Below, piece by piece: positions 1 to 29,514 of a stretch of 30,030 bases of DNA. The position numbers and the translations under genes are program-made. Below the pieces are notes generated by a model that was not told the DNA's origin, searched no databases, and was given only the letters and a program-made list of their open reading frames with translations. Source of the DNA: a virus (Duplodnaviria > Caudoviricetes); IMG/VR virus record IMGVR_UViG_3300044580_000067, positions 1-30,030 of that record; one strand, given 5' to 3'. Every line of letters starts with the position of its first letter. Position 1 is the first letter of the stretch.

Positions 1-38
1 TAAAGCCCGTTTACAACTTCAAAGCGGGCGGAGAATAA
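1..38 (+). CDS. rtcB: 3' end of a probable RtcB-family RNA ligase (truncated by window edge)
   Basis: Frame from nt 3 reads KPVYNFKAGGE-stop (TAA 36-38). KPVYNFKA matches the C-terminal motif I recall for a major RtcB subfamily. Only 11 codons are visible. Confidence 0.55.
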   Translation, partial: KPVYNFKAGGE

Positions 39-42
39 GAGT

Positions 43-101
43 TTCTAACAACTGCTTCAACTGGACAATCCTGACGGATGCAGGTTAAGCAAATGTTCGG
101 T
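43..101 (+). repeat. attC-like recombination site 1 (59 bp)
   Basis: R'' TTCTAAC (43-49), L'' GCTTCAAC (54-61), L' GTTAAGC (84-90), R' GTTCGGT (95-101). L'' is the reverse complement of L' plus one extra C, the extrahelical-base hallmark. The site starts 4 nt after a stop codon. Confidence 0.75.
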
Positions 102-161
102 GGACGCTCTGCGGCGTAACTGCGTTACACCGACAGCGCGCCAAGTTTTTGGCACGGATTA
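95..161 (+). repeat. Cassette 5' leader repeat, copy 1
   Basis: GTTCGGTGGACGC, then a variable hairpin, then CGCGCCAAGTTTTTGGCACGGATTA (137-161). Both blocks recur exactly at 425-437 and 474-498. Confidence 0.9.
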
Positions 162-175
162 CAGGAGGGAGGAAG

Positions 176-403
176 ATGGATCGTGAAAAGGCATTGGAAA
201 TAATTGAGAAGCTTGATAACTATGCAAGAGAAATCGACTGCTATGAATACGGGTTGCCTACTTTTCAGGACGAAAGAGAGGCAATGGTCGATATCGTGAT
301 GAGCTGTTTCGAAGGTGCCAAAAACACCGAACAAGCTAATCAACCTGACTCGCACATTATTCCGGGCAGAGTGTTGCCCTGTAACCGTACTGCATTTGTT
401 TGA
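176..403 (+). CDS. Small hypothetical protein carried on an attC-bounded cassette
   Basis: Strong RBS GGAGGGAGG before ATG 176 (MDREKALEII...). The ORF runs into the second attC-like site. Confidence 0.7.
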   Translation: MDREKALEIIEKLDNYAREIDCYEYGLPTFQDEREAMVDIVMSCFEGAKNTEQANQPDSHIIPGRVLPCNRTAFV

Positions 404-431
404 CGGCTCGCAGGTTATCAGCACGTTCGGT
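326..431 (+). repeat. attC-like recombination site 2 (106 bp)
   Basis: R'' ACCGAAC (326-332) is the exact reverse complement of R' GTTCGGT (425-431). GCTAATCAACCTG pairs with CAGGTTATCAGC with an extra C and one mismatch. Internal hairpin GGGCA/TGCCC. Confidence 0.75.
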
Positions 432-498
432 GGACGCTTTTACCGTCTAACCGCTTCGCTTATTAGACGGATACGCGCCAAGTTTTTGGCACGGATTA
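425..498 (+). repeat. Cassette 5' leader repeat, copy 2
   Basis: Same 13-bp and 25-bp blocks as 95-161, flanking a different hairpin (CCGTCTAA...TTAGACGG). Confidence 0.9.
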
Positions 499-595
499 AA
501 CGGAGCTGGTTGCTATTTCGTCAAGAACGAAACAGGAAGGATTGTTGGCCCGTATCCCGACATCACAGACTGGAAAGCGGATTTGCAGTCAATGA

Positions 596-889
596 TTGAC
601 ACATAAGACTAGACGTGATAAACTACGGCTAGTCCATATATATGATGAAAGGCTGTTTACAAGGACAGACTTGGATTTGTTAATGCAGGAAACAAGAAAC
701 AACAGGATAGCGCTTATAGCTGATTACATAATGATAAAACAGAAAAGGGATAAGAATACCGGAGGGAACAATAGCAAGAAGACAGCGAGGAAGATCGGAC
801 TCGCAGATGAAATAATGAAGCAGAAATGGGGTAAATACTACGAGTATGATAGGGAAAAGAATATACCGAAAATACTATACAAAAGATAG
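596..889 (+). pseudogene. Probable C-terminal remnant of a GREB1-like/TET-associated glycosyltransferase
   Basis: YDERL..RTDLDLLMQ, KNTGGN and KWGKY resemble the C-terminal half of phage TAGT/GREB1-like proteins. Too short for the full fold and lacks a good start or RBS. Confidence 0.45.
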
Positions 890-895
890 AAAAAT

Positions 896-926
896 ACTAG
901 ACAAATAATCCACTATGTGTTACCAT
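896..926 (+). promoter_or_regulatory. sigma70-type promoter with -35 TAGACA
   Basis: ACTAGACA (896-903), 17 nt spacer, TACCAT (921-926), upstream of RBS GGAGG. Confidence 0.7.
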
Positions 927-946
927 TGATAGTGGAGGAAAGAGAT

Positions 947-1501
947 ATGGAGCTACTTACGAAAAGCGGTTATCCTTTATTGACGATTGCTTCTTTATAT
1001 CAAAAGGCGATTAGGCGAGGGGACGCCAAACTTGCCGGGTTTGCGGCTTGCGAGATATGGGATAGATACCCGGAATACCTATGGAAGCGCACATTGGTTA
1101 TAAGCGCCGAGGACTGCGACGGCCTGGTAACTACCGAGATTGAGTCCCTATATCGATCAGACAAGATCATAAACGCAGGGAAAAAGGCATGGGAGAAAAG
1201 GACTCGAGTTTTCCTTGGGAAAGCAGTTACGATACTGCTAAAGGTTGGAAAATGCAGGGACGCCGATCATTTTACCAACTTCTTAATGACTAACCCCGAG
1301 CTAACGGCGCAGACAGTAGAGGAAATAGAATTAGAAAACAAGGCCCCAAAAACAATACCGGCCTACGTATATGACGTTCACACTGCCGAGGGAAAGAGAG
1401 CAGGAAAAACGAAAAAGGACTTTTTCAAGGAAGAGTTTGAAGCCTTGAAGAACCGCCAGCCAGGGTTATTTGATGATATGGTGGGTGAAGTATGCCGCTG
1501 A
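947..1501 (+). CDS. Phage protein with MgsA/RarA C-terminal-like helical domain
   Basis: SLYQKAIRRGD...LWKRTLVISAED resembles the RarA C-terminal SALxKSIRGSD..RRLxxxAsED motif. No Walker A. RBS GGAGG before ATG 947. Confidence 0.65.
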   Translation: MELLTKSGYPLLTIASLYQKAIRRGDAKLAGFAACEIWDRYPEYLWKRTLVISAEDCDGLVTTEIESLYRSDKIINAGKKAWEKRTRVFLGKAVTILLKVGKCRDADHFTNFLMTNPELTAQTVEEIELENKAPKTIPAYVYDVHTAEGKRAGKTKKDFFKEEFEALKNRQPGLFDDMVGEVCR

Positions 1502-1659
1502 TCAACAGGAAGGAGCAAAGGATACGGGCAGAGAAGGTCCGGGGATACATGGCACTGGGAATGCAGAGCGACGAGATCATCGAAGCCATGCAGAGGGAAT
1601 ACAAAATGAACCGATCCACGGTGTATAATTACATAAAGAAGGTGAAGAAGAATGGGTAA
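1492..1659 (+). CDS. Small helix-turn-helix DNA-binding protein (55 aa, not in ORF track)
   Basis: MPLINRKEQRIRAEKVRGYMALGMQSDEIIEAMQREYKMNRSTVYNYIKKVKKNG. STVYNYIK is a recognition-helix pattern. The gene overlaps both neighbours. Confidence 0.7.
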   Translation: MPLINRKEQRIRAEKVRGYMALGMQSDEIIEAMQREYKMNRSTVYNYIKKVKKNG

Positions 1660-2083
1660 GCATCCGGGCGGTAGGCCGACAAAATACGATTCACAGTATG
1701 CAGAACTACTGCCCGAGATGTTCAAGGACGGCCAATCAGTTGTAGAGGTCTGCGTTGCGTTAGGGATACACAAGGACACATTTTACGAATGGTGCGCCAA
1801 GCACAAAGAGTTTTCCGACGCCTACGCCCTCGGGTTGATGTATTCAGAAGCATGGTGGCAGAAGCTCGGCAGGGCGGGCGCGGCTGGCGGAAAGGTAAGC
1901 CCTCCGTTATGGCGAATGAACATGATGAACCGATTCAAATGGTCTGACAGGATAGACGTATCGGAGGATATAAGGAAGGCCGACTTTAAGGATGTAGCCG
2001 ATCCTGACCTTGCGAGTAAGAGTTACGATGAACGGGTGAAGATGGTTAAGGAATGGTTGTCACGAAACAATGATAACGAGTGA
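1652..2083 (+). CDS. terS: Terminase small subunit
   Basis: N-terminal GRPTKY, HTH-like LGIHKDTFYEW and EFSDAY. Directly upstream of TerL. Confidence 0.85.
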   Translation: MGKHPGGRPTKYDSQYAELLPEMFKDGQSVVEVCVALGIHKDTFYEWCAKHKEFSDAYALGLMYSEAWWQKLGRAGAAGGKVSPPLWRMNMMNRFKWSDRIDVSEDIRKADFKDVADPDLASKSYDERVKMVKEWLSRNNDNE

Positions 2084-3389
2084 GGAGCAATTCCTAGAAA
2101 TAACCGCCCAGCTTGCCAGGGAAGAAGTTGCGCCGAAGTTTAATGAGTGGCGCAAGCCGTATGCCTATAAGATCGCCTATGGCGGGCGCGGGGCTGGAGC
2201 CAAGACCGAATCTGCAATGTCCCTTGCGGTGCAATTCGGGGAGAATCCGCAGTATTTCGGTAATAGGGTGAATATCATAATCACCCGAGAGATACAAAAC
2301 ACCATCGATCTGTCATCCTTTGAAGCGGTAAAGAAGAAAGTCCAAACCCTTGGATATTCAGGATGGCGAATAACTAATAAGTACATCGAAAACACGAAAA
2401 ATGGCTCGCGGATTTCGTTTCGAGGTCTATCTGATCTTACCGCGGACAACTTTCGATCACTACAGGACGTAGACATTCTGGTCTGCGAGGAAGCGCACGG
2501 CATTGGATATAAGGCATGGAATACTGTCCTACCGTCGATGCGAAAGGCAAAGGCCGAGGTGTGGGTGTTGTTTAACCGCGTGCTTGAGATAGACCCATGC
2601 TATGATATATTTGTGCTAAACGAAAGGCCGAATAGTTGTATACTTGCGTTAGAGCCTGGGAATATAGACAATCCGTGGTTTGATCTTTCATCGCTACCAG
2701 AAAAGCGCGCGGCTGATTATGCCCGCGACCCAGACGAAGCCGCACATATATGGGAAGGATTGCCGAGAAAGCAGGGCGCAAATGCTGTTATGAACCGTCT
2801 TGATGTACTCGCGGCTATGGAAAGGAAAATCGAAAACCCCGAAGGAGACGATGCTATAGGAGTAGACGTAGCGCGGTTTGGAAGCGACTCGACGCAGATA
2901 TATCGGCGAAAAGGGTTAAAGGTTATTGCAGGGGAAACAATGACCGGGGTTGATACCGTACAGATAGCAAATAAGGCGTGGGAGATTGGCGGGATAGATA
3001 TAAAGTACAACATCGACGGCGGTTATAACCCAGGTTTGATAGATGTTATGCGCGGACGAGGGGCAGACGTTACGGAAATACAGTTCGGCGGTCGCCCGAG
3101 CAAGCCGGACGAATATGCAAACCTAGCGACTGAAATGTGGTTTGAGTTTCCCGTCAAGGAAGCCGACATTCCGAATGATAAAGAGCTACTGGTACAGCTA
3201 ACCGATAGGCGATATGGGTATGACAGCAAGGGGCGAAAAATAATCGAGCCGAAAGATGCGTACAAGAAGCGGAACGGAGGAAAGTCGCCCGATAAAGCCG
3301 ACGCGCTTATAATGGCCTACTATAGGCCGAAGAAAATCGTAGACGATGACATACGCGCACAAATGGCCGCGCTCCGCGCAAGGAACTGA
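2070..3389 (+). CDS. terL: Terminase large subunit (PBSX-type)
   Basis: GGRGAGAKT Walker A, LVCEEAH Walker B, GVDVARFGSD and SPDKADAL nuclease motifs. Confidence 0.95.
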   Translation: MITSEEQFLEITAQLAREEVAPKFNEWRKPYAYKIAYGGRGAGAKTESAMSLAVQFGENPQYFGNRVNIIITREIQNTIDLSSFEAVKKKVQTLGYSGWRITNKYIENTKNGSRISFRGLSDLTADNFRSLQDVDILVCEEAHGIGYKAWNTVLPSMRKAKAEVWVLFNRVLEIDPCYDIFVLNERPNSCILALEPGNIDNPWFDLSSLPEKRAADYARDPDEAAHIWEGLPRKQGANAVMNRLDVLAAMERKIENPEGDDAIGVDVARFGSDSTQIYRRKGLKVIAGETMTGVDTVQIANKAWEIGGIDIKYNIDGGYNPGLIDVMRGRGADVTEIQFGGRPSKPDEYANLATEMWFEFPVKEADIPNDKELLVQLTDRRYGYDSKGRKIIEPKDAYKKRNGGKSPDKADALIMAYYRPKKIVDDDIRAQMAALRARN

Positions 3390-3419
3390 CAGAACACCGT
3401 ATACCGTGGTATAATACCG
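3386..3419 (+). promoter_or_regulatory. Promoter for portal operon; -10 embedded in a palindrome
   Basis: CTGACA (3386-3391) then TGG-TATAAT (3410-3415). The 14-mer GTGGTATAATACCG is shared with 5874-5887. Confidence 0.6.
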
Positions 3420-3435
3420 CACGAGAGGTGAAAAG

Positions 3436-4848
3436 ATGGGACTGTATTCAAGTTTCCGCGAGTTCTTCGCCAGGCGAACCAGGGACAACGATGTATCGAG
3501 AACCCAGCCATTGCGCCCGTATGAAAGGGACAATACGGGTGGAATGCCGATAAACGAAAAGCTGATAACGGGGTTATATCGCGGAACGAATGAGGGCCTA
3601 CAGTTTGCCTCTCCGCTTGCGGTAACTCCCGTCAATGTCCCTGTAAACCTTGTTTCGATCCCAACGCCTACTGCGAATGATGAGATAACCAAGGAAAGGA
3701 TAAAACGTCTTATTGATGAGAAGAAAGAGGATTTTCCGATCATCGAGAGAACCAAGTGCGCCTATGGAACGGCCTGGCGTTGGGCCTGGTACGATAGCAA
3801 AAACATGGCGCTTGTTTGGGAGGCAATACCGGACGCTTCAATTTGCGATATAGAGGTCGATACCTTGAGCGGCGAGATAAACGCCATCTATACGCACGAT
3901 CGCTTCAAAATAGCCGTTGGAGAAAACAAGGCGGCTTATGTTGAGCGTAGGAGGAAGATAACTCGGGAACAGGTAACGGTTAAGTGGGAAGGGGACGCGA
4001 ACGCACGAGGGACGAATCTTTCGTACACTGGCAGGAACGTATTCGGGACGATGCCAATTCCGTTCGGGCGAGACTGCGGAGAGAATGAGCATCGAGGCCA
4101 TTCCGTTCTTGCGAGGAACATGAGATCATATCGCGCTCTACATGAGATCGAGCTAAAGCGGGCGCAGATACTTGCAGACTTCAACCCGAAATTAAATATA
4201 AAAACGACAAGCGTTAAGAGCTGGCTTGATAATAACGGGCTTACGGACATACTTCACGCCAACGATACGGTATTCGAGTCTCGACTTTATATCGGAGAGA
4301 AAGACGACACGATTGATATAACTTATTTGCCGTCAGACGCAACCAAGCCCCATTCGGACGCGATCAAGGAGCTTACGCATAAGATCGTGATAGGCTCCGA
4401 GGTGCCGGAGATATTCTGGGGAACCCTAGCAACCGGAAACGAGGCGTCGGTAGACTCTCACCGTGATCTGGCGAGCCAGTACATAGCCGCGCTCCGTGAT
4501 GAGGATTCGCGCCCTTACGAGCGGCTTTTCAACGACTCATTGCGGATACTCTCATTCGTAGAGCAGACAAGGTACGGCGCTGTAACGATGGGATGGGGAC
4601 GTTTCGAGATGGTTTCCACGCTTGTTAAGTCGCAGATACTGGCGAACGTTTCGGCGGCTATCTCGCAGATCGTAACCAATGCCGGAGGGACGAAAGAGGA
4701 CGTGCTGTACTTCTGGCGAATGTTCTTCCCCGATCTACCAGAGACGGACATATCAGCGTTTACGGCAGGAATCAAGGACATGGCTAAACACGCGGCCTTC
4801 GCGCGAACCGATATGTACGGGCAGACGGGAAGCAATGACGAGGAGTGA
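3436..4848 (+). CDS. Portal protein
   Basis: 470 aa, immediately after TerL, RBS GAGGTG. The VPEIFWG..ATGNEAS pattern is portal-like. Confidence 0.8.
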   Translation: MGLYSSFREFFARRTRDNDVSRTQPLRPYERDNTGGMPINEKLITGLYRGTNEGLQFASPLAVTPVNVPVNLVSIPTPTANDEITKERIKRLIDEKKEDFPIIERTKCAYGTAWRWAWYDSKNMALVWEAIPDASICDIEVDTLSGEINAIYTHDRFKIAVGENKAAYVERRRKITREQVTVKWEGDANARGTNLSYTGRNVFGTMPIPFGRDCGENEHRGHSVLARNMRSYRALHEIELKRAQILADFNPKLNIKTTSVKSWLDNNGLTDILHANDTVFESRLYIGEKDDTIDITYLPSDATKPHSDAIKELTHKIVIGSEVPEIFWGTLATGNEASVDSHRDLASQYIAALRDEDSRPYERLFNDSLRILSFVEQTRYGAVTMGWGRFEMVSTLVKSQILANVSAAISQIVTNAGGTKEDVLYFWRMFFPDLPETDISAFTAGIKDMAKHAAFARTDMYGQTGSNDEE

Positions 4849-5824
4849 GTATAGCCGAAAGAAGGCGGCGGTACGAAATGCGGGATTGAAGGAGACAATG
4901 GCAAGGATAGCCGAGGCTCGTCGTATGTATCGCCGACAGCTTGAGAAGGTGAACCGTGTCGTCGTGAAATTACCGAAGGGAAAGCTGTCGGAAGAAAGCA
5001 TCGCGCGGATTGACGGAGTGATAGACAAGCGTGAGTGCGTAGAGAAGTTGACCGCGATTGTTTCCGGGGCGAGCCTAAAGATGGCGCGACGTGTTGTATC
5101 TGTAGACGCAGACTATATTACGGACGCAGGGAAGGAAGCCGGGGTAGAGTTTAGCGGACTTAAAGAAGCATTTGACCGGATCGCGCGTAAAGCGACCGAG
5201 AGGAACAGGCGCACTGCTTTTGTTTTTAGAAACTCCACGAAGTACAATCTGTCAGAAGCGGTTTGGAACGCAGTAGAGGGGTTCAGCGACAAACTGAAAG
5301 CTGTAGTAGAAGCCGAGTTTGCGCGAGGGACAGACCCAGTGAAGATTGCAAGACTGCTGGAAGAATATCTGGAAAGCGGGGATGAAGGTATCATCCTTGG
5401 GAGATGGGGAGAGATGGAACCAGGGATGAGCGACTACCGGAAACGTATCGGGCGCGGAGGTGCAGACTTTCGCACACAGCGGCTTGTGAGAACCGAGATT
5501 TTCAATTCTATCCGTAACGCAGATATACGGTCAGGCGCGGCGAATCCAGGGACAACGGGGAAGTGGCGATGGGTGATGGTGGCTTCGCGTGGGGACTGGG
5601 ACTGCGATTGTCCAAGCCGCGCCGCAGGAGGGCCGTATACCCAGGAGCGCGTTCAAGAGCTTGTAGACACTGCACACCCAAATTGCTTTTGTCGAATCGA
5701 GCCAGAGCTAATGGAACACGACGCTTTCATCGAATCGCTACTAGACTACGTTGACGGGAAAGATACAGCAGGAGCGCGCAGAGTAGAGGAATGGTCAGGA
5801 CAATATGACGTTATAGCGGCGTAG
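4835..5824 (+). CDS. Head morphogenesis protein (MuF/SPP1 gp7-like)
   Basis: RLVRTE and C..C...HPNCFC motifs. Follows the portal gene; ATG 4835 overlaps the portal end. Confidence 0.8.
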   Translation: MTRSEYSRKKAAVRNAGLKETMARIAEARRMYRRQLEKVNRVVVKLPKGKLSEESIARIDGVIDKRECVEKLTAIVSGASLKMARRVVSVDADYITDAGKEAGVEFSGLKEAFDRIARKATERNRRTAFVFRNSTKYNLSEAVWNAVEGFSDKLKAVVEAEFARGTDPVKIARLLEEYLESGDEGIILGRWGEMEPGMSDYRKRIGRGGADFRTQRLVRTEIFNSIRNADIRSGAANPGTTGKWRWVMVASRGDWDCDCPSRAAGGPYTQERVQELVDTAHPNCFCRIEPELMEHDAFIESLLDYVDGKDTAGARRVEEWSGQYDVIAA

Positions 5825-5854
5825 GTGATATAAAAAGCGAAATAACGCTATACA

Positions 5855-5887
5855 TTGCGTGAAATGCAAAGGAGTGGTATAATACCG
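5855..5887 (+). promoter_or_regulatory. Promoter for head operon, probably leaderless transcript
   Basis: TTGCGT (5855-5860), 17 nt spacer, TATAAT (5878-5883). ATG 5890 lies 6 nt downstream, leaving no room for an SD. Confidence 0.65.
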
Positions 5888-5889
5888 AC

Positions 5890-7320
5890 ATGAACAGAAT
5901 TATGGACAAGCCGGTGTTCTTGAACCTCAAGAAACCGGAAAACAGTTCGATCGCGATGCCGAACATCGAGGACGTTCCGATTCTGTTGAACGCCAAGGCC
6001 CTACAGGAGATTCAGCGCGACGATAACGAGCCTTACTACAAGGTGGAAGCCATCGAGTTCCCTTGCGAGGGTACGGGCGGCATATACGAGAAAAGTTTTT
6101 TCAAGAGCTTCATAGATGTTACCAAAAATCGCCCGATCCCAGGAAGCAAGCGCGGCCACGAGTTCACGTCGCGCCCCTCGACCGACTTCTATATGGTTGG
6201 CGGGAGTATTGTGGAGAACGAGGACAAGAAAAGCGGCGTTGCCTATTTCAAGATGTACATACCCAAGAAGGGAGATACGACGGACAACTACGGGTTTATG
6301 CGGGACTGCCGGGCGAACATCGTTCACTTCTCGCTCGTAACCCAGCCCGAGTACAACGTCAGGCGCGACGAGGACGGGCAGGAGAGGCGGCACTTCATAC
6401 GCCATGTCGCGTATGAACGAAACGACGCGGTAGAATACGGAGCAGGGGCAATGAGCCAGGTGGTGAATGCCGCGAACGCTTCGGGCGACAAGGTTCAGGG
6501 CAAGAGCGTCGCGAAGGCAAAGCGGCTAATCGAGGCGGGCAACTACGATTCATCGTCCTCGTGGAGTTTCAGCGCGGCCGACGGCGACAAGATGCTCGGT
6601 TCAGAAAAAGACGACTGGGGCAATTACGCTTCCTGGCACATGGTCGAGGACACGACCGCGAGCGAGGAAACGAAGGCGAGATATAAGTATCCCTACGGGA
6701 AGAACGGAAAGGTGTATCGTTCCGCGCTACGCGCTATAGCGTCCCGCGCCGCGACCGCCGATCTGAACGAACTGTCGGATACGGCAACGGAGCTGATAAA
6801 GCTCATAGACGAGAAACGTAAATCAAACGGAGGACGAAAGATGGAACTGAACGAAGCCATCGAAACCGTCGGTAACGCCATCTCGAACGGTGCGGCCAAG
6901 ATAACCGACATCGCCAAGTCGTGCGGATTCGCCGACAAGATGCGTAACGAGACGGACGAGAAGAACGCAGAGATCGCCAGGTACGTCAACGAAAAGTTCG
7001 GGGACAAGTACAAGGACAAGATCGAGGGCATGATCGACGAGAACAAGAAGAACGCCGAAGCCATCGCCAGGGCCGCCGTGATCGAAGCCTACGGGAACGC
7101 CGAGGAAACCATCGGCGACAAGAAGGTGGAGAACGCCGCGCATACCTACGCGATGAAGGTATGCAACGGCAAGACGGGAGACGATCTAAAAGCGGCCATC
7201 GAATCGCTCAAGAACGATTCCGTCATGTCGGTGATTCTCGCGAGTCGCGCTGACCCTTTCAACAAGGTCAATGCGATCGAGTCGAACGGAAACGGTGATC
7301 GTAAGATCATCGAAGCGTAA
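5890..7320 (+). CDS. Prohead protease-scaffold fusion protein
   Basis: Lies between MuF and capsid genes. N-terminal domain has candidate His/Ser (RGHEF, HFSLV); C-terminus is helical and charged. Confidence 0.65.
   Translation: MNRIMDKPVFLNLKKPENSSIAMPNIEDVPILLNAKALQEIQRDDNEPYYKVEAIEFPCEGTGGIYEKSFFKSFIDVTKNRPIPGSKRGHEFTSRPSTDFYMVGGSIVENEDKKSGVAYFKMYIPKKGDTTDNYGFMRDCRANIVHFSLVTQPEYNVRRDEDGQERRHFIRHVAYERNDAVEYGAGAMSQVVNAANASGDKVQGKSVAKAKRLIEAGNYDSSSSWSFSAADGDKMLGSEKDDWGNYASWHMVEDTTASEETKARYKYPYGKNGKVYRSALRAIASRAATADLNELSDTATELIKLIDEKRKSNGGRKMELNEAIETVGNAISNGAAKITDIAKSCGFADKMRNETDEKNAEIARYVNEKFGDKYKDKIEGMIDENKKNAEAIARAAVIEAYGNAEETIGDKKVENAAHTYAMKVCNGKTGDDLKAAIESLKNDSVMSVILASRADPFNKVNAIESNGNGDRKIIEA
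6841..7320 (+). CDS. Nested in-frame scaffolding protein
   Basis: Internal RBS GGAGG (6829-6833) before in-frame ATG 6841 (MELNEAIE...). Ala/Glu/Lys-rich helical product. Confidence 0.6.
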   Translation: MELNEAIETVGNAISNGAAKITDIAKSCGFADKMRNETDEKNAEIARYVNEKFGDKYKDKIEGMIDENKKNAEAIARAAVIEAYGNAEETIGDKKVENAAHTYAMKVCNGKTGDDLKAAIESLKNDSVMSVILASRADPFNKVNAIESNGNGDRKIIEA

Positions 7321-7331
7321 GGAGGAAGAAT

Positions 7332-7856
7332 ATGGCTAAAGCCTATGTAGTCAAGGGAAAGAACGATCACGTTAGGCTGTATAACGGAACCGGTTCTGCC
7401 ATTAAGCAGGGTGACTTCGTTGTCCTGGGTGATCTGTGCGGCGTTGCCGACGAGGACATCGACAACCTTACGGTTGGTTCGGTTCACGTCGAGGAAGGTC
7501 TTATCGTCCAGGCGAGCGAGTTCGTAACTGGCGAGAATACGTTCAACACCCCGCATCAAACGGTGTACCTCGACCCGATCAGCGGGGACTTTTCGGATAC
7601 GTCCAATGCCGGGTACAAGGCGGTGGGGCAACTCATCGAGGTCAAGGATTCTGGCGGGGTGATTCGGTTCAGCAAGTACCGAAGGGCAGTTACCGTCGGT
7701 GAGCCGATAAGGATTACCCTCTCGCAGATCACCGACATCGGGAACCTCGCCCTCGGAGACCTCGCCGACGTCAATCTCGCCGGAGTCACGGACAATGATC
7801 GCTTGGCTTACGACTCTGCCACTTCCAAGTGGATTCCCGAAGCGGTCGCCGACTAA
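7332..7856 (+). CDS. DUF2190-like capsid decoration/cement protein with C-terminal extension
   Basis: AIKQGDFVVLGDLCGVADEDI...G.VHVEEG matches the DUF2190 pattern. Strong RBS GGAGG, directly before the capsid gene. Confidence 0.7.
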   Translation: MAKAYVVKGKNDHVRLYNGTGSAIKQGDFVVLGDLCGVADEDIDNLTVGSVHVEEGLIVQASEFVTGENTFNTPHQTVYLDPISGDFSDTSNAGYKAVGQLIEVKDSGGVIRFSKYRRAVTVGEPIRITLSQITDIGNLALGDLADVNLAGVTDNDRLAYDSATSKWIPEAVAD

Positions 7857-7875
7857 CGGCAAAGGAGAAAAAAGA

Positions 7876-9081
7876 ATGGATAGCATGATACTGACCAACG
7901 AAAAGCTCATCGAGCGCAGGGTGGCTAACGCCGAGAAGCGCGTGGCCCGCGTCGTACTCGGTAACGGGCGCGAGAACAAGCGGCGAACCGATCTCGAGTT
8001 TTCGCCCGGAACCGAGTTCACCACGAAAAGCCGGAACTGGGCGAACAGCGCGGCGCGCGATGAGCTGTACCGCAACATGAAGGTCTTGTCGGACAAGATC
8101 GTCGAGGCAGAGAAAAACGCCTCGCCGTCACCGGCAGACCTTATGAGGTACCTTGAGTACGTCCAGATCGACCTTGTGCGGCTTTCCGAGGACAACGCGG
8201 ACTACTCGGGGATGATTTACAACGTGTACAATCGCCCGGACGCGACCGATCCGACCAAGATTCGTGATCTCATCCCCTACGTTGGTAAGAAGGAAGTTAT
8301 CAGCGGCGAGAACGACAGCGTGCCGATGATCGAGGAGAACAACGCGCAGGGCGCGACGATCAATCTCGACTTTAAGGCGTTCGGCCACAAGTCCAGTATT
8401 CGGAACCTCGTGATGAACCCGAACGCCACGACCCAGCGAGTCCTTGAGGCCGCCGCGACCATCGACATCGACAGTCGCAACAACGACACCATCGGACACC
8501 TCGTCGGGCTGACCTATCCGGCCAAGCAGTCTGTCGCGTTCGACTCTGGCGGTTCGACCAGGGATGAGAAGCTCTACAACACGGTCGTTGCCGCGATCAA
8601 GAAGCTCGCCGCGCTCAAGCACCCGCTGACGGGCCAGCTCCTATCGGGGATCGGCGCGTTCTCTGGCGGCCTTCGTATCCTCGCACACCCCGCCGACGCG
8701 TGGGAACTGGAGCGCGTGATCCGTGGTCAGCTCGAAGGCAAGGGCGGGACGGCGGCGAATCGCTCGCGGCTCCCGATCGCTGACATCATCCCCTACGGTG
8801 GCGGCGTGATGAACGGCCTTACCTGGGCCGGGAAAACCCTGGCTCTCCCTGGCGTCACACTCGGGACGGCGTACCTGTATCTGCCGAATCGCCTCGCGGG
8901 GTTCATAATCGACAAGATCGGGCAGACGATGGAAACCGGGTCAGGCTCGGTTATCCAGCTCTCCACCGAGGAGCGCGCCTGGTACAACGTCAACGGACTC
9001 CATCACTCGTTCTTCACCGGAGGCGCGGAAACCAACACCGATTCCGGTGAAGGCTGTATCGTGAAGTTCGCCACCGCGTAA
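7876..9081 (+). CDS. Major capsid protein
   Basis: About 401 aa from ATG 7876 (RBS AAGGAG), strongly C/G-ending codons, canonical position, followed by a terminator. Confidence 0.8.
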   Translation: MDSMILTNEKLIERRVANAEKRVARVVLGNGRENKRRTDLEFSPGTEFTTKSRNWANSAARDELYRNMKVLSDKIVEAEKNASPSPADLMRYLEYVQIDLVRLSEDNADYSGMIYNVYNRPDATDPTKIRDLIPYVGKKEVISGENDSVPMIEENNAQGATINLDFKAFGHKSSIRNLVMNPNATTQRVLEAAATIDIDSRNNDTIGHLVGLTYPAKQSVAFDSGGSTRDEKLYNTVVAAIKKLAALKHPLTGQLLSGIGAFSGGLRILAHPADAWELERVIRGQLEGKGGTAANRSRLPIADIIPYGGGVMNGLTWAGKTLALPGVTLGTAYLYLPNRLAGFIIDKIGQTMETGSGSVIQLSTEERAWYNVNGLHHSFFTGGAETNTDSGEGCIVKFATA

Positions 9082-9109
9082 CAGCGGCAAAGCGAAAAGA
9101 AGATGCTAT

Positions 9110-9144
9110 GGGTGGGGTCTTGCAAACGCGGGGCCTCACCCTTT
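9110..9144 (+). terminator. Terminator-like hairpin after capsid gene
   Basis: GGGTGGGGTCTTGC-AAAC-GCGGGGCCTCACCC followed by a short TTT. Confidence 0.6.
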
Positions 9145-9162
9145 CCTGTAGAGAGGTAAAAC

Positions 9163-9654
9163 ATGGCAGAGGTATGGTCGAGTTTGAAATCTGTACGCAT
9201 GAAAATCCGCGACCCGCTCGGAGTCATTGACCTAGACCATGTTACGAACCAGGCCGCGCTTCCCGTAACCCCTAAAAGACAGACTGCGTATCGAGCTGAC
9301 GATACAGGGACGTATTGGCAGTTTGACGAAGGACTGCAGGCGTGGGGCGCGAAGGATATACGGGTCAGCGATGAAACGTTAAACGGAATTATTGACGCGA
9401 AGGGAGTTACCGGGGCTGTTGGCCCAGCGATAGACGAGATTATCGCCGGGCTTTACTCGGAGTTACCGCTTGTGCAGTCGTCGAGCGGATCAGAAAACTT
9501 TCAGTTTGTGAAACTATCGGAGGTGTTGGCTTTCTACGAACGCCTCAAGAAGATATATAAGGACGCTGTAGCAGAAGATGAGAATATGAATACCGGGAAG
9601 TTCGTATGCACTCCACAGCGTGTCGTAGGCGGTATTCGGGAAACCTTTTTTTAA
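9163..9654 (+). CDS. Head-tail connector/adaptor protein (putative)
   Basis: Synteny after the capsid gene; RBS GAGGT. Confidence 0.5.
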   Translation: MAEVWSSLKSVRMKIRDPLGVIDLDHVTNQAALPVTPKRQTAYRADDTGTYWQFDEGLQAWGAKDIRVSDETLNGIIDAKGVTGAVGPAIDEIIAGLYSELPLVQSSSGSENFQFVKLSEVLAFYERLKKIYKDAVAEDENMNTGKFVCTPQRVVGGIRETFF

Positions 9655-9713
9655 CGGAGGAACCCTGATGCGTCAACCGACACGAAGAGCCGTAGTTTTG
9701 TGTGGGAGGAGTG

Positions 9714-10364
9714 ATGATATTAGAGTCGTTACGAAAGGCGTATGAAGCGAAAATAGCAATCAATCCGACGGTCGTTGAGATACAGCGCCTCCCGCTCATC
9801 CCAAACGGATTCGGCGGATATGTACAGGACTTCTCCGGGTCGGTTACTGTTATACGGGAGCGAGTGCGAATATCGCATGAGCAAGGATCGGTTCCGGCTG
9901 GTTCGGCTTCTCCGGTAGGAATATCAACGTCATTCGGGCTTTATGCTCTCCTGCCGTGGAATAGCCAGGTAAAGCAAGGAGAGGAGATTCGCGCGGGCCT
10001 TCGCTCGTGGCGGGTTGGGGTAGTTGATAGTCTCATCGTGGAGGGGAAGGTGTATGGGAAACGTGCGCCGCTGACCGAGACCTCGCGCCCTGGAATCGAG
10101 CCGCCTACTGGATTCACCGCGACTGCGAACAGCTCGTCAACAATCGTGCTTTCATGGGCCGACTTTGTAGGAAACGCTTATAGCATCGAGCGAGAGAACG
10201 GCGAAGGCGAGTTTGAGGAAATCGCGTCGATAGCGCCCGGCGTATTCACGCATACCGATACCGGACTTACTGCGGGAACAGAATATAAATATCGTCTACG
10301 GGCCTATGATGGAACCACTTGGTCAAGGTATACTGATGTAGTAACTGCTACTACGCAGAGTTAG
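9714..10364 (+). CDS. Head-closure-like protein with C-terminal fibronectin type III domain
   Basis: N-terminal beta-rich neck-type domain (PNGFGGY...RVRIS). C-terminal FN3 signature PPTGFTATA..STIVLSW..YSIER..TGLTAGTEYKYRLRAY. Confidence 0.7.
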   Translation: MILESLRKAYEAKIAINPTVVEIQRLPLIPNGFGGYVQDFSGSVTVIRERVRISHEQGSVPAGSASPVGISTSFGLYALLPWNSQVKQGEEIRAGLRSWRVGVVDSLIVEGKVYGKRAPLTETSRPGIEPPTGFTATANSSSTIVLSWADFVGNAYSIERENGEGEFEEIASIAPGVFTHTDTGLTAGTEYKYRLRAYDGTTWSRYTDVVTATTQS

Positions 10365-10374
10365 GAGGAACGAA

Positions 10375-10566
10375 TTGAGTGGTATACCGAAAAGCGCGGC
10401 TGACGCGAAACCGAGCGATGGACAGAAAGCCAGGCTGAACGGGACGGCCGATGAGGTTCTAGTTCAGATCGGCGAGAAAGATTTTTTCGTGAGCGAAGAT
10501 GAGGCGCTTATGATTGCGTCGAAGATACTCATAACGCTCCAGGTGATTCATGCTAACCGGACTTGA
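10375..10566 (+). CDS. Small hypothetical protein
   Basis: RBS AGGAGG with TTG start; fills the gap between neck genes. Confidence 0.55.
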   Translation: MSGIPKSAADAKPSDGQKARLNGTADEVLVQIGEKDFFVSEDEALMIASKILITLQVIHANRT

Positions 10567-10918
10567 GACGGTAAAGAAGAACATCGCGGAGATATTTCGC
10601 CGGAAGCGAATCGCTACGCTTGCTTTGTGTCAGTATTACGCGGAGTTAGCGGTACAGACGTTCAGGATTAAGCAGGGATCGGTATACGGTACTGGCGGCT
10701 TTTGGGCGAACAGAACGTGGACAGCGTTTCAGTCAGTGTTCGGGAAGGCGTTCGAGGATGCAAACGCGAACGCGATGGGATTCTTCCTTTCTCACGCAGT
10801 TGAGTACGGAGTCGCGCTGGAGCTGGCGAACGATAGGAGGCACGCGGCATTATTGCCGACTGTGATTGACCTGCAAGACCAGTTCATGAAAGACCTTAGA
10901 AGGATATGGGAAAGATGA
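10550..10918 (+). CDS. HK97 gp10-like neck/tail completion protein
   Basis: W.NRT and SHAVEYGVALEL...LLPT motifs, plus synteny. Confidence 0.65.
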   Translation: MLTGLETVKKNIAEIFRRKRIATLALCQYYAELAVQTFRIKQGSVYGTGGFWANRTWTAFQSVFGKAFEDANANAMGFFLSHAVEYGVALELANDRRHAALLPTVIDLQDQFMKDLRRIWER

Positions 10919-11283
10919 TCGAACAGGTAGTGAAGAAGCTGAAAACAGGAGCTATAAAAACTGTCGTGCCGTTCGATTCTCTTTTCGGAAGCGACGGTAA
11001 TCCCGTATACCCGGCGGCTCCTTATATTGTCGTAAAAACAGAGAAGGGAGTAGGTGGCCGGAACTTTCGCATCATCGTGCATTATCCTATCGGGGCAAGA
11101 TTGCAACTTGAGAATGCAATGCGGGCGACTATGGCACTACTGAAAGGATTCGGGGCAACGTCAAGAAACGGAGCGTACAACCGGCTTGAGGGGCCGATTG
11201 ACTATACGGATGTCGATGTCGTCAACGACGACAAGACTATCAGCATGGAGGCATTGTATCTAATGCCTACCAAAACTTTCTAG
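10915..11283 (+). CDS. Tail terminator protein (putative)
   Basis: PAAPYIVV motif, about 122 aa, directly before the tail tube gene; ATGA overlap. Confidence 0.55.
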   Translation: MIEQVVKKLKTGAIKTVVPFDSLFGSDGNPVYPAAPYIVVKTEKGVGGRNFRIIVHYPIGARLQLENAMRATMALLKGFGATSRNGAYNRLEGPIDYTDVDVVNDDKTISMEALYLMPTKTF

Positions 11284-11292
11284 GAGTAGCAT

Positions 11293-12216
11293 ATGTCTCA
11301 AAGGGAAGTAAACGCGAGATACAATTTTGGCCTCTCGCGCACGAGGCTCCGGACGTTGAACGACGATCTTTCGCGCCCGGAGTATAACAACATCATCGGT
11401 GGCGTCGGCCCGTTCGACTTTTCAGGCGTAACCGCTATCGCGGCGGTGCCGATCAGTTTGAAGGTGAACAACTCGGCCGTGGTGAACGACACCATCGATC
11501 TTTCGGCGGCGCTCGTTCCCGCGGCCGTAACGGTGGATGAGTTCGTCACCGCCTTCAATGCCGTTGGGCTTACTGGGTGGACGGCCTCGAAAGACGCGAC
11601 CACGGGCCGGCTCAAGATCGTGAACTCCACGACCGGAGCCTATGTCCAGGTGTACGGCGAGGCCGCGAGGCTCGTCCGTATCGGCCAGGGCAAGGGCGTG
11701 AAGGCTATCAAGTCGGACACGATGCAGACCTTCACCGTTACGCCGACCGTGAAAGAGGACACCACGTTCACGATCACGGACGCAAACAACCTCGACACGG
11801 AACGAATCAAGGAGGGGTACAAGAAGGGGTTCACGGGGTCGCTTGTGGACACCGCCGAGGACTTCGAGATTCTCGAACTCGTCGAGAGCGGAACCCTTTC
11901 GGCCGACGGAAAAACCTACACCGACCCGACCAGCACGACCAAAAAGGTTGTGTTCGAGATTGAAACGTACAACCCGTTGTACGCGGCAGGAACGAACATG
12001 GAAGATCAGATCGTCGGGTGGGAACACAAGATACTTCGGATGTGCAAGGGATCGATCGGCGAGCAGACCAAGGAAGCTGGGTTTGGTACCAGGACGTTCA
12101 ATATCGTTGGTACCAACTATCGACCGAACGTAACCGGGGCCGTCGAGTCGGGATCGATCATCACCGAACACCTCGACTTCGAGGACTGGTCTACCGAAAT
12201 CTTCGACGCCATCTAA
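11293..12216 (+). CDS. Major tail tube protein
   Basis: RBS AGGAG, Thr/Gly-rich, codon bias like the capsid gene, located before chaperone and tape measure. Confidence 0.7.
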   Translation: MSQREVNARYNFGLSRTRLRTLNDDLSRPEYNNIIGGVGPFDFSGVTAIAAVPISLKVNNSAVVNDTIDLSAALVPAAVTVDEFVTAFNAVGLTGWTASKDATTGRLKIVNSTTGAYVQVYGEAARLVRIGQGKGVKAIKSDTMQTFTVTPTVKEDTTFTITDANNLDTERIKEGYKKGFTGSLVDTAEDFEILELVESGTLSADGKTYTDPTSTTKKVVFEIETYNPLYAAGTNMEDQIVGWEHKILRMCKGSIGEQTKEAGFGTRTFNIVGTNYRPNVTGAVESGSIITEHLDFEDWSTEIFDAI

Positions 12217-23167: not shown

Positions 23168-23178
23168 CTGAAAAAATA

Positions 23179-23209
23179 ACTAGACAGATAAAAAAAAACG
23201 TGCTAGACT
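23179..23209 (+). promoter_or_regulatory. Early promoter with -35 TAGACA
   Basis: A-rich UP tract, ACTAGACA, 17 nt spacer, TG-C-TAGACT (23204-23209). Confidence 0.7.
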
Positions 23210-23292
23210 AACCTTATTAAAGACTCCATTGGAGGTTAGTTTGAAAAACACTTTACGTCGCGCCATGCCTATAGCTGGAAAACCTCTAAACT

Positions 23293-23727: not shown

Positions 23728-24651
23728 ATGATTCGCAAAGCAACGGAAATTAACCCTTCGCGGAAGTACCGCATACTGCTGTACGGAGTTCCCGGCGTCA
23801 GGAAAACGTCGGTAGCCATCTCCGCGCCGCGAACGCTACTCATCGACACAGAAGGCGGTTACGACCGTGTTGACGCCAGGTTCCGCAGGGCCGCGTACAT
23901 TCAGCCGAAAACCTACGACGAACTTCTTTCCGACCTCACCCCCGAGAACGTGAAGGACTTCGACACTATCGCAATCGATACGGGCGGCGCGTTGCTCGAA
24001 ATGATGAAGTCATACGTCATCTCGCAGAACGCCAAGAACGGCCAGAAGGACGGCACGACGCTTTCCATTCAGGGGTACGGGGCAATCGGGCGCGAGTTCG
24101 CCAGGATCATTGATCGTTGCTATCGAGTTCTCGACAAGAACGTTGTCTTGGTTTTCCACGCGAAGGAGGACAAGGACGGCGACCAGCTCATCTACCGGAT
24201 CGACGTCGAGGGAGGCACGAAAAATGCCATCTGGAAGTCGATGGATTTGGCCGGGTTCATGGAAGTAAGGGGACAGCGGTACTTCGTGTCGTTCTCTCCG
24301 ACCGAGCGCGTGTACGCGAAATCGACGCGCGGCATATCCGGCGAAATCGAAATCCCGACGATAAACGGTAACGAGAAGAACGACATCCTTTCGCGTCTGT
24401 TCGATCGGCTACGCGAGGCAGGAAGGAAGGACGCCGAGCTTGTCGCGCAATACGACGCAGTTATCGGCAACGCCAGGGAAATCGTGGACGGCGTAACCGA
24501 CAAGGAGACTGCGAGCGACGCCATGAAGAAACTTGGGGAACTTCCCGAGATTTTCGAGTCGAAGCGAGAGGCGTGGGAAATGCTCAAGACGAAGGCGTCA
24601 AGTCTCGGACTGGCGTATACCAAGGATGGATTCGTCGAGGCGGCGGTATGA
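23728..24651 (+). CDS. AAA_24/Sak4-like ssDNA-annealing ATPase
   Basis: ILLYGVPGVRKT Walker A variant, LLIDTEGG, IAIDT, VFHAKE. Confidence 0.85.
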   Translation: MIRKATEINPSRKYRILLYGVPGVRKTSVAISAPRTLLIDTEGGYDRVDARFRRAAYIQPKTYDELLSDLTPENVKDFDTIAIDTGGALLEMMKSYVISQNAKNGQKDGTTLSIQGYGAIGREFARIIDRCYRVLDKNVVLVFHAKEDKDGDQLIYRIDVEGGTKNAIWKSMDLAGFMEVRGQRYFVSFSPTERVYAKSTRGISGEIEIPTINGNEKNDILSRLFDRLREAGRKDAELVAQYDAVIGNAREIVDGVTDKETASDAMKKLGELPEIFESKREAWEMLKTKASSLGLAYTKDGFVEAAV

Positions 24652-26805: not shown

Positions 26806-26946
26806 GTCAATTAGTTCTGGCCGACTGATTGACGGTTGCCCTATCAGGGGCGATAATACTAGAAACCTTTATTCGAGCAGGGAAACGATGCTGATACATC
26901 GTCCCGCAAGGCCGGCCAGCCGCTCGAGTAAAGGTTTTTTTTATTT
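26806..26946 (+). ncRNA. Structured cis-regulatory leader RNA with two loop-loop pairings and a terminator-like stem
   Basis: Hairpin 26806-26833 (loop CTGGCC) and hairpin 26835-26854 (loop TATCAG). A 16-bp stem 26863-26878/26922-26937 with U-tract encloses the complements CTGATA and GGCCAG. Confidence 0.7.
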
Positions 26947-26952
26947 GCAAGG

Positions 26953-27765
26953 ATGCAAAGAATGAGTTCGATACCTAAACCTAATTACACGCAAATACCG
27001 AACGTTTATTTTGATGAAATTATGTGCAGTCTAAACGGGTCGGAAAATCTTGTTTTCCTTGCGATAATGCGAAAGACGTTTGGTTGGCATAAGATGAAGG
27101 ATAAAATATCGTATGCACAAATACGAAAAATGTCCGGGTTAGCATCTAACACGACTATACAAAAAGCACTAGACAGTCTAATTGAAAAGAAACTTGTGCT
27201 ACAGGAGAAGGAAAAAGCAGGCATAAGCTACGAAGTAAACGTGGAGACCTTTACAGAAAATGTAAAGGGTACAGATGATGACCTTTACAGAAAATGTAAA
27301 GCTACCTTTACAGAAAATGTAAAGGGTAAGGTTGAAACCTTTACAGAAAATGTAAACACAAAAGAAAGTAATATAAATAAAATTAAAAAAAATATAGACT
27401 TTTCAAAAATTGAAAAGTCGTATGCGGAAGAATATGAAAAACTAAAAGGACATAAACCAACACTCATCTTCGCTGCTCTTCGCTCTCGTATAAAAAAACT
27501 GGCCGCCCAGGGAATAGACGAATCGTTAATCTTGAATGTGATACGCGCCGCGACGAAGGACGAATGGATTGTGGCGAACGGATTCGAGATACTAACGATT
27601 CTGTCAGATAAAATGATAATGCGATTAGCAAATGAGACGCAATCATCGAGAACGTCCTCTCCGAAAAAAGGCGTGACTTGCCCACGTTGCGGCTCGGAAG
27701 TAATAGCAGGCATCTGTACGAAATGTCGAGCGCTTATAGATTCTGAAGGGAAGGAACTGACATGA
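26953..27765 (+). CDS. Replication initiator (lambda O-like N-terminus, C-terminal Zn ribbon)
   Basis: PNYTQIPN...IMRKTFGW.K..D.IS, internal iterons, CPRC..CTKC. Start may be 26962. Confidence 0.85.
   Translation: MQRMSSIPKPNYTQIPNVYFDEIMCSLNGSENLVFLAIMRKTFGWHKMKDKISYAQIRKMSGLASNTTIQKALDSLIEKKLVLQEKEKAGISYEVNVETFTENVKGTDDDLYRKCKATFTENVKGKVETFTENVNTKESNINKIKKNIDFSKIEKSYAEEYEKLKGHKPTLIFAALRSRIKKLAAQGIDESLILNVIRAATKDEWIVANGFEILTILSDKMIMRLANETQSSRTSSPKKGVTCPRCGSEVIAGICTKCRALIDSEGKELT
27247..27420. repeat. Replication origin: four 20-bp iterons plus AT-rich tract
   Basis: ACCTTTACAGAAAATGTAAA at 27247, 27281, 27304 and 27337. Each has the inverted repeat TTTACA-N5-TGTAAA. A/T-rich segment follows. 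Confidence 0.9.
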
Positions 27766-29442: not shown

Positions 29443-29456
29443 AAATAAAAAAATAG

Positions 29457-29487
29457 ACTAGACAGAAAAGAAAAAGCGTAATAAACT
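29457..29487 (+). promoter_or_regulatory. Promoter with -35 TAGACA
   Basis: A-tract UP element, ACTAGACA, 17 nt spacer, TAAACT (29482-29487). Confidence 0.7.
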
Positions 29488-29514
29488 ACAAGACATGAAA
29501 AGGAGAAACGGGAT

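Follow-up and report, generated by a model that had tools for sequence, protein, structure and literature searches.

The start of this phage genome raises the question of whether a virus carries gene cassettes of the integron type and, if so, which enzyme moves them. In the window (the whole stretch analysed, a virus record of 30,030 bp), an attC-bearing stretch lies at the start, upstream of the terminase genes, and the 41 ORFs that were scanned include terminase, head, tail, lysis, Sak4-like, NinB-like, O-like and DnaB genes. Our results support a model, to which we give a probability of about 80%, in which the window holds the tail of a cassette array, the phage possesses an attI-like site but lacks an integrase, and the IntI of the host, probably a spirochaete, moves the cassettes at G/TT. 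As read from sequence, the array, its head site, the gain or loss of one cassette, an exchange boundary at R' and the absence of an enzyme gene are established; the array is real and apparently active.

The tail of a larger array

The earlier note on this DNA had described two attC sites with the extra C, and both were recovered on the plus strand: site 1 at 43-101 (R'' 43-49, extra C 58, L' 83-89, R' 95-101, crossover G95/T96) and site 2 at 326-431 (R'' 326-332, extra C 341, L' 413-419, R' 425-431, crossover G425/T426). Each has the arrangement R''-L''-loop-L'-R', AAC/GTT, an unpaired spacer and extrahelical bases, the defining anatomy that we took as our criterion of membership from the available text of PMC5371416. 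A strict generic attC grammar missed both sites, and family patterns and attC models built here from family members were used instead. In 36 members of the family, 98% of cells were paired, with two-sided changes at 7 of 14 pairs, a level of pairing reached by none of 500 shuffles. The covariance check that had been proposed for the sites gave matches with the family models: site 1 scored 56.8 bits, a value that is not independent because this site is in the training set, and the long site 2 was matched only in part in the window (E 0.2), while its identical copy in the sister phage described below scored 42.7 bits. Rfam gave no match for the window elements. Site 1 is slightly degenerate (two L-arm mismatches; T62 and G63 deviate from the consensus of the family), and its top strand gives the more stable fold (-8.5 versus -5.9 kcal/mol on the bottom strand); site 2, whose loop is long, branched and protein-coding, folds better on the bottom strand (z -2.46 versus -1.54).

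Between the two crossover points lies a single-gene cassette of 330 bp (96-425, plus strand) whose own ends are complementary over 8 nt. Its boundaries, and an ORF that reads into the attC, had been proposed before and were confirmed: the 75-aa ORF at 176-403 (plus strand) has its stop codon inside site 2. This ORF consists of about 46 codons of its own followed by an in-frame fusion to a tail encoded by the frame and the attC. The tail is common to two unrelated proteins, and the ORF belongs to no known family, with no match in PHROG or Pfam. Overlapping ORFs at 149-403, 315-599 and 125-424 (minus strand) were set aside as by-products. As proposed, R'' of site 2 is complementary to R' of site 1, over 8 nt, but it is equally so to the R' of site 2, because the two downstream arms are identical. 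Beyond site 2 stands the stub of a further cassette (425-505, plus strand), with an arm a, a second leader hairpin (433-482), an arm b (483-492) and a cut ribosome-binding site, and with neither a start codon nor an attC. The 5' end of this stub also heads complete cassettes at two other loci, L001 and L020, and the homology of L001 to the window begins exactly at nucleotide 425. On the other side, positions 1-38 (plus strand) hold the 3' end of an RtcB RNA-ligase gene (matching 6516-6553 of the sister phage; PF01139, E 1e-61), the cargo of a preceding cassette of 1,241 bp. The previous description of the region was thus sound as far as it went, but the end of the RtcB gene, a second hairpin and the longer pairing between cassette ends had escaped it.

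The array is laid out whole in a sister phage (L006, record G001), which is 99.6% identical to the window over 2109-11386 (9.3 kb) and extends further upstream. The far end of L006 overlaps the last 33 bases of the window, and joined in this way the two records make a closed circle of about 38.6 kb. A search upstream had been suggested, and L006 supplied five more attC sites and an attI-like head; its array consists of this head and seven cassettes of 201-1,241 bp, six of which have a 5' end that complements their own R'' over 7-8 nt. The 330-bp cassette is identical there, and window positions 43-431 are the tail of this array. Comparison with a related phage, likewise suggested, showed that L006 differs by exactly one cassette, an extra one of 302 bp at site 1, with one base different from the window over 1-97 and none over 95-640. 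The sites flanking this cassette have 18 nt in common, which leaves an 18-nt crossover window; because of this shared stretch, the pair alone cannot fix the crossover and also fits homologous recombination. With two attC sites in the window and seven in L006, the array is a CALIN by the definition in the available text of PMC4889954, and no intI gene, the mark of a complete integron, is present in the window or in L006, which together close the composite circle. The claim that the phage carries a cassette array for accessory genes is therefore borne out, for an array larger than had been reported.

Several other features of these records were observed. A predicted sigma-70-like promoter at 596-624 (plus strand; consensus match, identical stretch in L006) closes the array region. 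A promoter-like repeat (TAGACA/TTGACA, 17 nt, TAAACT/TAGACT) has copies at 596-626, 23171-23210 and 29449-29488 of the window and two more in L006 950-1700. Next to the array, L006 7458-7990 and window 647-2083 differ by an unrelated small terminase subunit swapped in between 99.6%-identical flanks, the window side comprising an ATPase-like gene, small ORFs and a small terminase subunit. Four iteron-like repeats within the O-like replication gene (27247-27368) mark a likely origin, and a long inverted repeat followed by a T run precedes that gene (26855-26945; no Rfam match), possibly a terminator or a regulatory RNA. No INPHARED phage had a DNA match to window 40-520, terminase relatives in that collection are only about 30% identical, and none of the sequencing runs screened contained more than 13% of the array's words; the contigs compared from four runs covered mostly frames.

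Array heads and the exchange boundary

A model of the sequence after G/TT gave 147 matches in 67 loci, of which 145 were examined after two cut-off matches were dropped; 141 of these start with GTT. The strict attC right-arm pattern is absent in 64, and inspection by eye showed 40 of them to be array heads rather than attC variants. In unrelated flanks, 28 of the 40 heads have one anatomy: a box, four bases, the inverted box, a spacer of 5-6 nt and GTT. The other 12 lack it and may be attG-type insertions. A head-only pattern had 17 viral matches, 11 with an R box and a leader and one with an R box only, the remaining five being copies of one unrelated sequence. A profile of 27 heads scores 33.7 bits at L006 4205-4231 (L006 is in the training set) and at most 3.9 bits in the window's other DNA, so that L006 carries a predicted attI-like site at its array head, beyond the start of the window. 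The same profile reaches 25.4 bits in L223, a Spirochaetales genome, at a point 137 nt downstream of intI; 23.5 bits in Treponema parvum (L130), where the distance from the intI match is about 150 nt; and 20.9 bits past an intI fragment (L134). In a comparison of seven intI loci, it matched clearly at only one, the 9.7 bits at L228 being noise. No Pc promoter was found near the attI-like site of L006, where the nearest consensus promoters lie 2.5 kb upstream; a promoter-like pair, seen by eye, precedes the head of L001.

Some heads are unusual in their setting. At 13100-14900 of L449 (G012), an AT-rich phage-like contig (about 30% GC) contains a GC-richer patch in which the attI, together with one and the same gene end upstream of it, is present twice, with cassettes after each copy; it seems that the platform as a whole can pass from one phage to another, unrelated one. 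Two pairs of loci (L004/L244 and L043/L243) represent single phage records with attI-headed arrays at two distant places. In L051 and L029, the 6-nt spacers of the heads are identical to attC right-hand spacers, which suggests attI/attC hybrids made at the common TAA.

One exact attC pattern occurs at 74 viral and 138 genome loci, and among the 80 genome loci listed Treponema and other Spirochaetota are the largest group. The attC halves are fully complementary in 87 of 103 distinct phage sites (shuffled mean 47.5, maximum 57), while the arm after the G is independent of the preceding attC type (p 0.83; 103 phage sites), and 10 of 12 recurring cassette starts are preceded by two or more different attC spacers right up to the G. 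Cassettes also tend to complement their own ends, over at least 7 nt in 28/41 phage cassettes compared with 127/1,640 non-cognate pairs, although such a 7-nt match is absent in 26 of 109. All of these counts refer to sequences, not to independent events. Halves that travel together, with the downstream cassette swapped at G/TT, form the pattern that would be expected of integrase exchange. We considered whether the same module had been inserted twice in tandem and rejected this, since self-complementary (8 nt) in-array sites (6/102) are in no excess over non-cognate pairs (90/1,640). At the L054 methyltransferase pair, an attC and its leader have been deleted between two AAC copies, leaving a plain operon that, by its layout, is a case of cassette domestication.

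The strongest rival explanation is that the sites are mere repeats between which a Sak4-like protein shuffles genes by homologous recombination, with no integrase involved. The phage does encode a Sak4-like single-strand annealing protein (23728-24651, plus strand; phrog_124, E 6e-44), a candidate helper of such exchange, and the 18 nt shared at the window/L006 indel would suit it. Moreover, chimeric attC sites and chimeric leaders exist, and the attI block is duplicated in L449 together with the upstream gene end; from the chimeras it follows that homologous recombination also acts. However, homologous crossing would mix attC halves and keep the upstream spacer linked to the downstream arm, the opposite of what is seen, and it does not predict a homology that begins exactly at nucleotide 425, as in L001. 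It also leaves unexplained the extrahelical bases, the own-end complementarity and an attI common to chromosomal integrons. As the sole explanation of the array, we therefore regard it as improbable.

Leader hairpins, paired ends and reusable frames

Downstream of the crossover point, each of the window's two cassette starts carries a leader hairpin. Leader 1 (103-145, minus strand) has a bulged base at its foot, an outer stem, an internal loop and a 9-bp inner stem. GA continues the 8-nt arm in 80/102 phage sites and 72/127 genome sites, and phage leaders form a two-stem hairpin with two-sided changes at all 10 predicted pairs. G9 is paired and A10 bulged in 42 of the 48 leaders with an exact outer stem; the other 48 of 96, without an exact 4-bp outer stem, lie outside this count. 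On the top strand, inner-stem mismatches are C.A in 44 cases and G.T in 6, a bias whose p value is overstated because the sequences are related. Such mismatches wobble only on the bottom strand, so the leader works on the bottom strand, like attC, and the window leaders indeed fold better there. The motif NTTANNCNGA occurs in the attC L'' arm, the R' arm, the leader inner arm and the attI outer box, although its presence in the R' arm is not free evidence, GA having been selected for there; in the L'' arm, its bulged A is the second extrahelical base. The leader hairpin is thus a likely accessory site for the integrase. At about even odds, we propose that it extends the bottom-strand recombination site, offering an extrahelical T and a second box to the R-bound integrase.

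The cassettes of Treponema chromosomes carry just a short hairpin, whose foot is that of the phage leader; strand counts for these chromosomal leaders (2 versus 4) do not single out either strand. Three Treponema loci (L174, L103 and L190) contain mini-cassettes without an ORF, whose arm a, tiny hairpin and R'' together fold into a single hairpin, and long attC loops in two genome bins (L152 and L093) contain branch hairpins that end in CGCCAA, like the phage leader.

The ends of the 330-bp cassette pair further than R'' and R'. Arm a (95-102, plus strand) is R' plus one base and the complement of 325-332, and arm b (146-155, plus strand) is the exact complement of 315-324; the partners b' (315-324) and a' (325-332, which includes R'') form the 3' half of a reusable frame (315-332, plus strand). 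With leader 1 looped out, the cassette ends pair over 18 bp, and the bottom strand of 310-497 is predicted to fold as a three-way junction (z -4.3). Arms b/b' of at least 7 nt occur in 35/109 cassettes, 32 of them in one leader class, compared with 11/3,180 shifted windows. The 26 distinct pairs are free in sequence, with seven internal mismatches in total; because they share pairing and no sequence core, we rejected the idea that b/b' is a second, nested recombination site. The pairing is tied to an R'' lacking TAAC (29/38 versus 6/71 cassettes; 7/10 versus 2/20 types, p 0.002). Strand counts for a/a' (7 versus 7) do not single out either strand. We tentatively suggest, at somewhat less than even odds, that where the R box lacks the consensus fourth base, b/b' adds about 10 bp that would keep the attC of the circle and a junction-like intermediate folded.

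These structures bear on two further rivals. The first, that the cassettes are inert pieces of a host chromosomal integron no longer moved in phages, would account for the occurrence of the same attC type in Treponema chromosomal arrays and for decayed cassettes, which are common and include the stub at 425-505 and a single remnant in G002. Against it are the gain or loss of a cassette between 99.6%-identical phages, a cargo in phage arrays that is of phage type (methyltransferases, RtcB), and a single contig that joins the L006-type attI region to a different first cassette (with 22 nt on one side). In addition, a long leader was found in only one of 150 Spiro_09-order genomes, there on a phage contig, and b/b' of at least 7 nt in none of 19 genome-bin cassettes. 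We consider this rival highly improbable. The second takes leader, b/b' and attC for RNA elements that serve small expression modules by stabilising mRNA, as processing stems or by controlling translation. In its favour, arm b abuts or includes the ribosome-binding site, and the mismatches in b/b' (G.T 2, C.A 1) favour neither strand; but leader mismatches that wobble on the bottom strand only, the lack of an Rfam match and the exchange at G/TT would all go unexplained, and its probability is smaller still. Arms b/b' may have an RNA role beside a DNA role.

The paired ends enclose a frame that has been used repeatedly. A ribosome-binding site and start codon supplied by the frame (156-178, plus strand) are conserved in the 50 cassettes of this frame, with the start codon 11-15 nt past the conserved stretch. 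The window's 3' frame end had 98 metagenome matches with 81 different upstream sequences, and a matching 5' frame end was present in 34 of the 55 stretches with enough upstream DNA. Nearly all distinct two-ended genes (48/50) start at the first ATG or GTG after the frame's ribosome-binding site and run in frame to the 3' end; they fall into 33 families (27 at a loose threshold) and have 33-96 codons. Other frames are alike, for example one of 8 cassettes in which 0/28 gene pairs are homologous. One frame with 27-33 unrelated families, a fixed start and an in-frame end implies that cargo is replaced inside a constant frame.

A captured GNAT meets the frame at its natural C-terminus. Searches of the relatives of frame cargo found no near-identical non-cassette donor gene. 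Among 62 methyltransferase relatives scored as not attC-linked (at least two of which carry an attC or its remnant that the pattern missed), the next gene was called for 22, and in only 6 of these its ribosome-binding site lies at or just before the junction; being 52-65% identical, these 62 relatives are not donors. The idea that cargo is taken up as a piece reaching between two successive ribosome-binding sites is not supported by these counts. In cassettes without b/b', AAGA stands just before R'' in 31/74 compared with 6/74 one window further up, a hint of purine-rich microhomology. New cassettes may be made by the substitution of a small phage gene for the cargo of an existing frame, most likely through short-homology recombination at purine-rich ends and possibly aided by the Sak4-like protein, a proposal that we rate slightly below an even chance.

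Enzyme, host and known systems

IntI scored above the cut-off in none of the 46 phage records, of which nine are at least 90% complete, compared with 6 of the 12 cellular genomes that carry the same attC type. The earlier note had allowed either a host IntI or a recombinase of the phage; no tyrosine recombinase (PF00589) is present in the window or in the L006 record, which leaves the host enzyme, and we infer from this absence that a host IntI acts in trans. Although most phage records are incomplete, a phage-encoded enzyme of the tyrosine, HUH or reverse transcriptase type is largely refuted and has a negligible probability, since PF00589 occurs in only 1 of 10 records that are at least 90% complete, where it marks an ordinary integrase that lies 9 kb away from the cassette and scores far under the IntI cut-off, and RVT_1 (reverse transcriptase) and Y1_Tnp (Y1 transposase) in 0/17 each. 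According to the available text of PMC9892861, IntI1 recombined 5 of 6 attC sites from virulent phages.

The suggestion of spirochaete (Treponema-type) sites fits both the attC and the attI types, and from these site types the host itself is probably a spirochaete. The window's structural protein (5890-7320) had no match in 401 genomes of the Spiro_09 phylum. With 37 candidates scored in each genome, the leader model matched nothing beyond the centre genome, either among 150 Spiro_09-order genomes or among 150 genomes of the phylum of G012. Genome bins labelled with several phyla do contain the long leader; the contigs concerned are either very short or, in the two that were checked, phage-like. 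Four contigs with the phage cassette type (L094, L102, L116 and L191) lie in bins, the first three labelled Saccharibacteria, Gammaproteobacteria and Vulcanibacillus; they are probably mis-binned phage DNA, or else reflect a wider host range. At L224, an oppositely oriented second tyrosine recombinase sits between a spirochaete intI and the first cassette.

In the model that we favour, phage replication would expose bottom strands, and the host IntI would excise cassettes between folded attC sites and insert them at the phage attI, so that accessory genes are reordered and sampled. The leader and b/b' would stabilise or tune the folded substrate, new cargo would be taken into frames by exchange over short homologies at the foot of the paired ends, and old cassettes would decay to ordinary operon genes, as the stub at 425-505 may illustrate.

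Phages are known to shuffle accessory genes by homology-based exchange between repeats, such as the promoter stem-loop elements of T4-type phages and lambdoid linker sequences. As in those systems, repeated intergenic elements here bound swappable small accessory genes; unlike them, the array's exchange maps to R' and its repeats keep the attC structure. Phage attC clusters have already been published (17 CALINs in 10,705 genomes; PMC9892861), so the mere presence of attC in a phage is not new. The present arrays resemble those CALINs, as described in the available text, in being integrase-less clusters of same-orientation attC sites with methyltransferase cargo, the published ones being usable by IntI1 in trans, and a Shewanella prophage CALIN there also begins with an attI. 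They differ from those descriptions in cassette gain or loss between sister phages, in a recurrent attI head, and in the hairpin after R', the end-pairing and the reuse of frames, and a single exact pattern gave 74 viral loci here compared with those 17 CALINs. The words 'Spirochaet' and 'Treponema' do not appear in the available part of the PMC9892861 supplement. Going by the available text, what lies beyond the published phage CALINs is the conserved attI-like head, the covarying bottom-strand second hairpin and the reusable frames. The literature that we could draw on, in part and without querying these exact terms (including PMC8352920, PMC8876359 and 10.1101/2024.07.02.601686), contained no account of attI heads that recur in phages, of a hairpin following R' or of reused frames.

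Chromosomal integrons of Treponema and other spirochaetes have, from the available text of PMC3607928 and PMC4909258, the same attC type as the phage. Some of their attI sites, following a co-oriented intI, match the phage head profile, and many of their cassettes have GA at +9/+10 (in the 72/127 genome sites above) and a short hairpin. In contrast to the phage arrays, they carry intI, have a single short leader hairpin and lack b/b' of at least 7 nt (0/19), and their cassettes are longer, with cellular cargo. IntI also places cassettes at non-integron attG sites (10.1101/2022.09.11.507474), and delta-attI cassettes (PMC12901181) indicate that attI-like ends can belong to mobile units. As far as the attG source describes it, attG is a short GWT motif, whereas the phage heads are a 24-nt conserved two-box site in unrelated phage contexts.

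The origin of new integron cassettes is stated to be unknown in the available text of PMC4889954 and PMC5371416. The frames suggest the swapping of genes into frames as a means of cassette genesis, a question that could be tested with the 330-bp substrate. It is conceivable, if a little doubtful, that such arrays are cassette factories, in which a frame takes up whole small phage genes, each from its start codon almost to its stop, and makes them mobile by the host IntI, so that they dock at the phage attI and could reach chromosomal integrons. If true, a route by which cassettes form de novo would be open to view, and attC would have a longer form with a three-way junction. Our results suggest that in this phage lineage about 50 nt of the following cassette belong to the recombination site, and that the shuffling of accessory genes such as methyltransferases and RtcB by phages with a borrowed host integrase is far more frequent than surveys of isolates imply.
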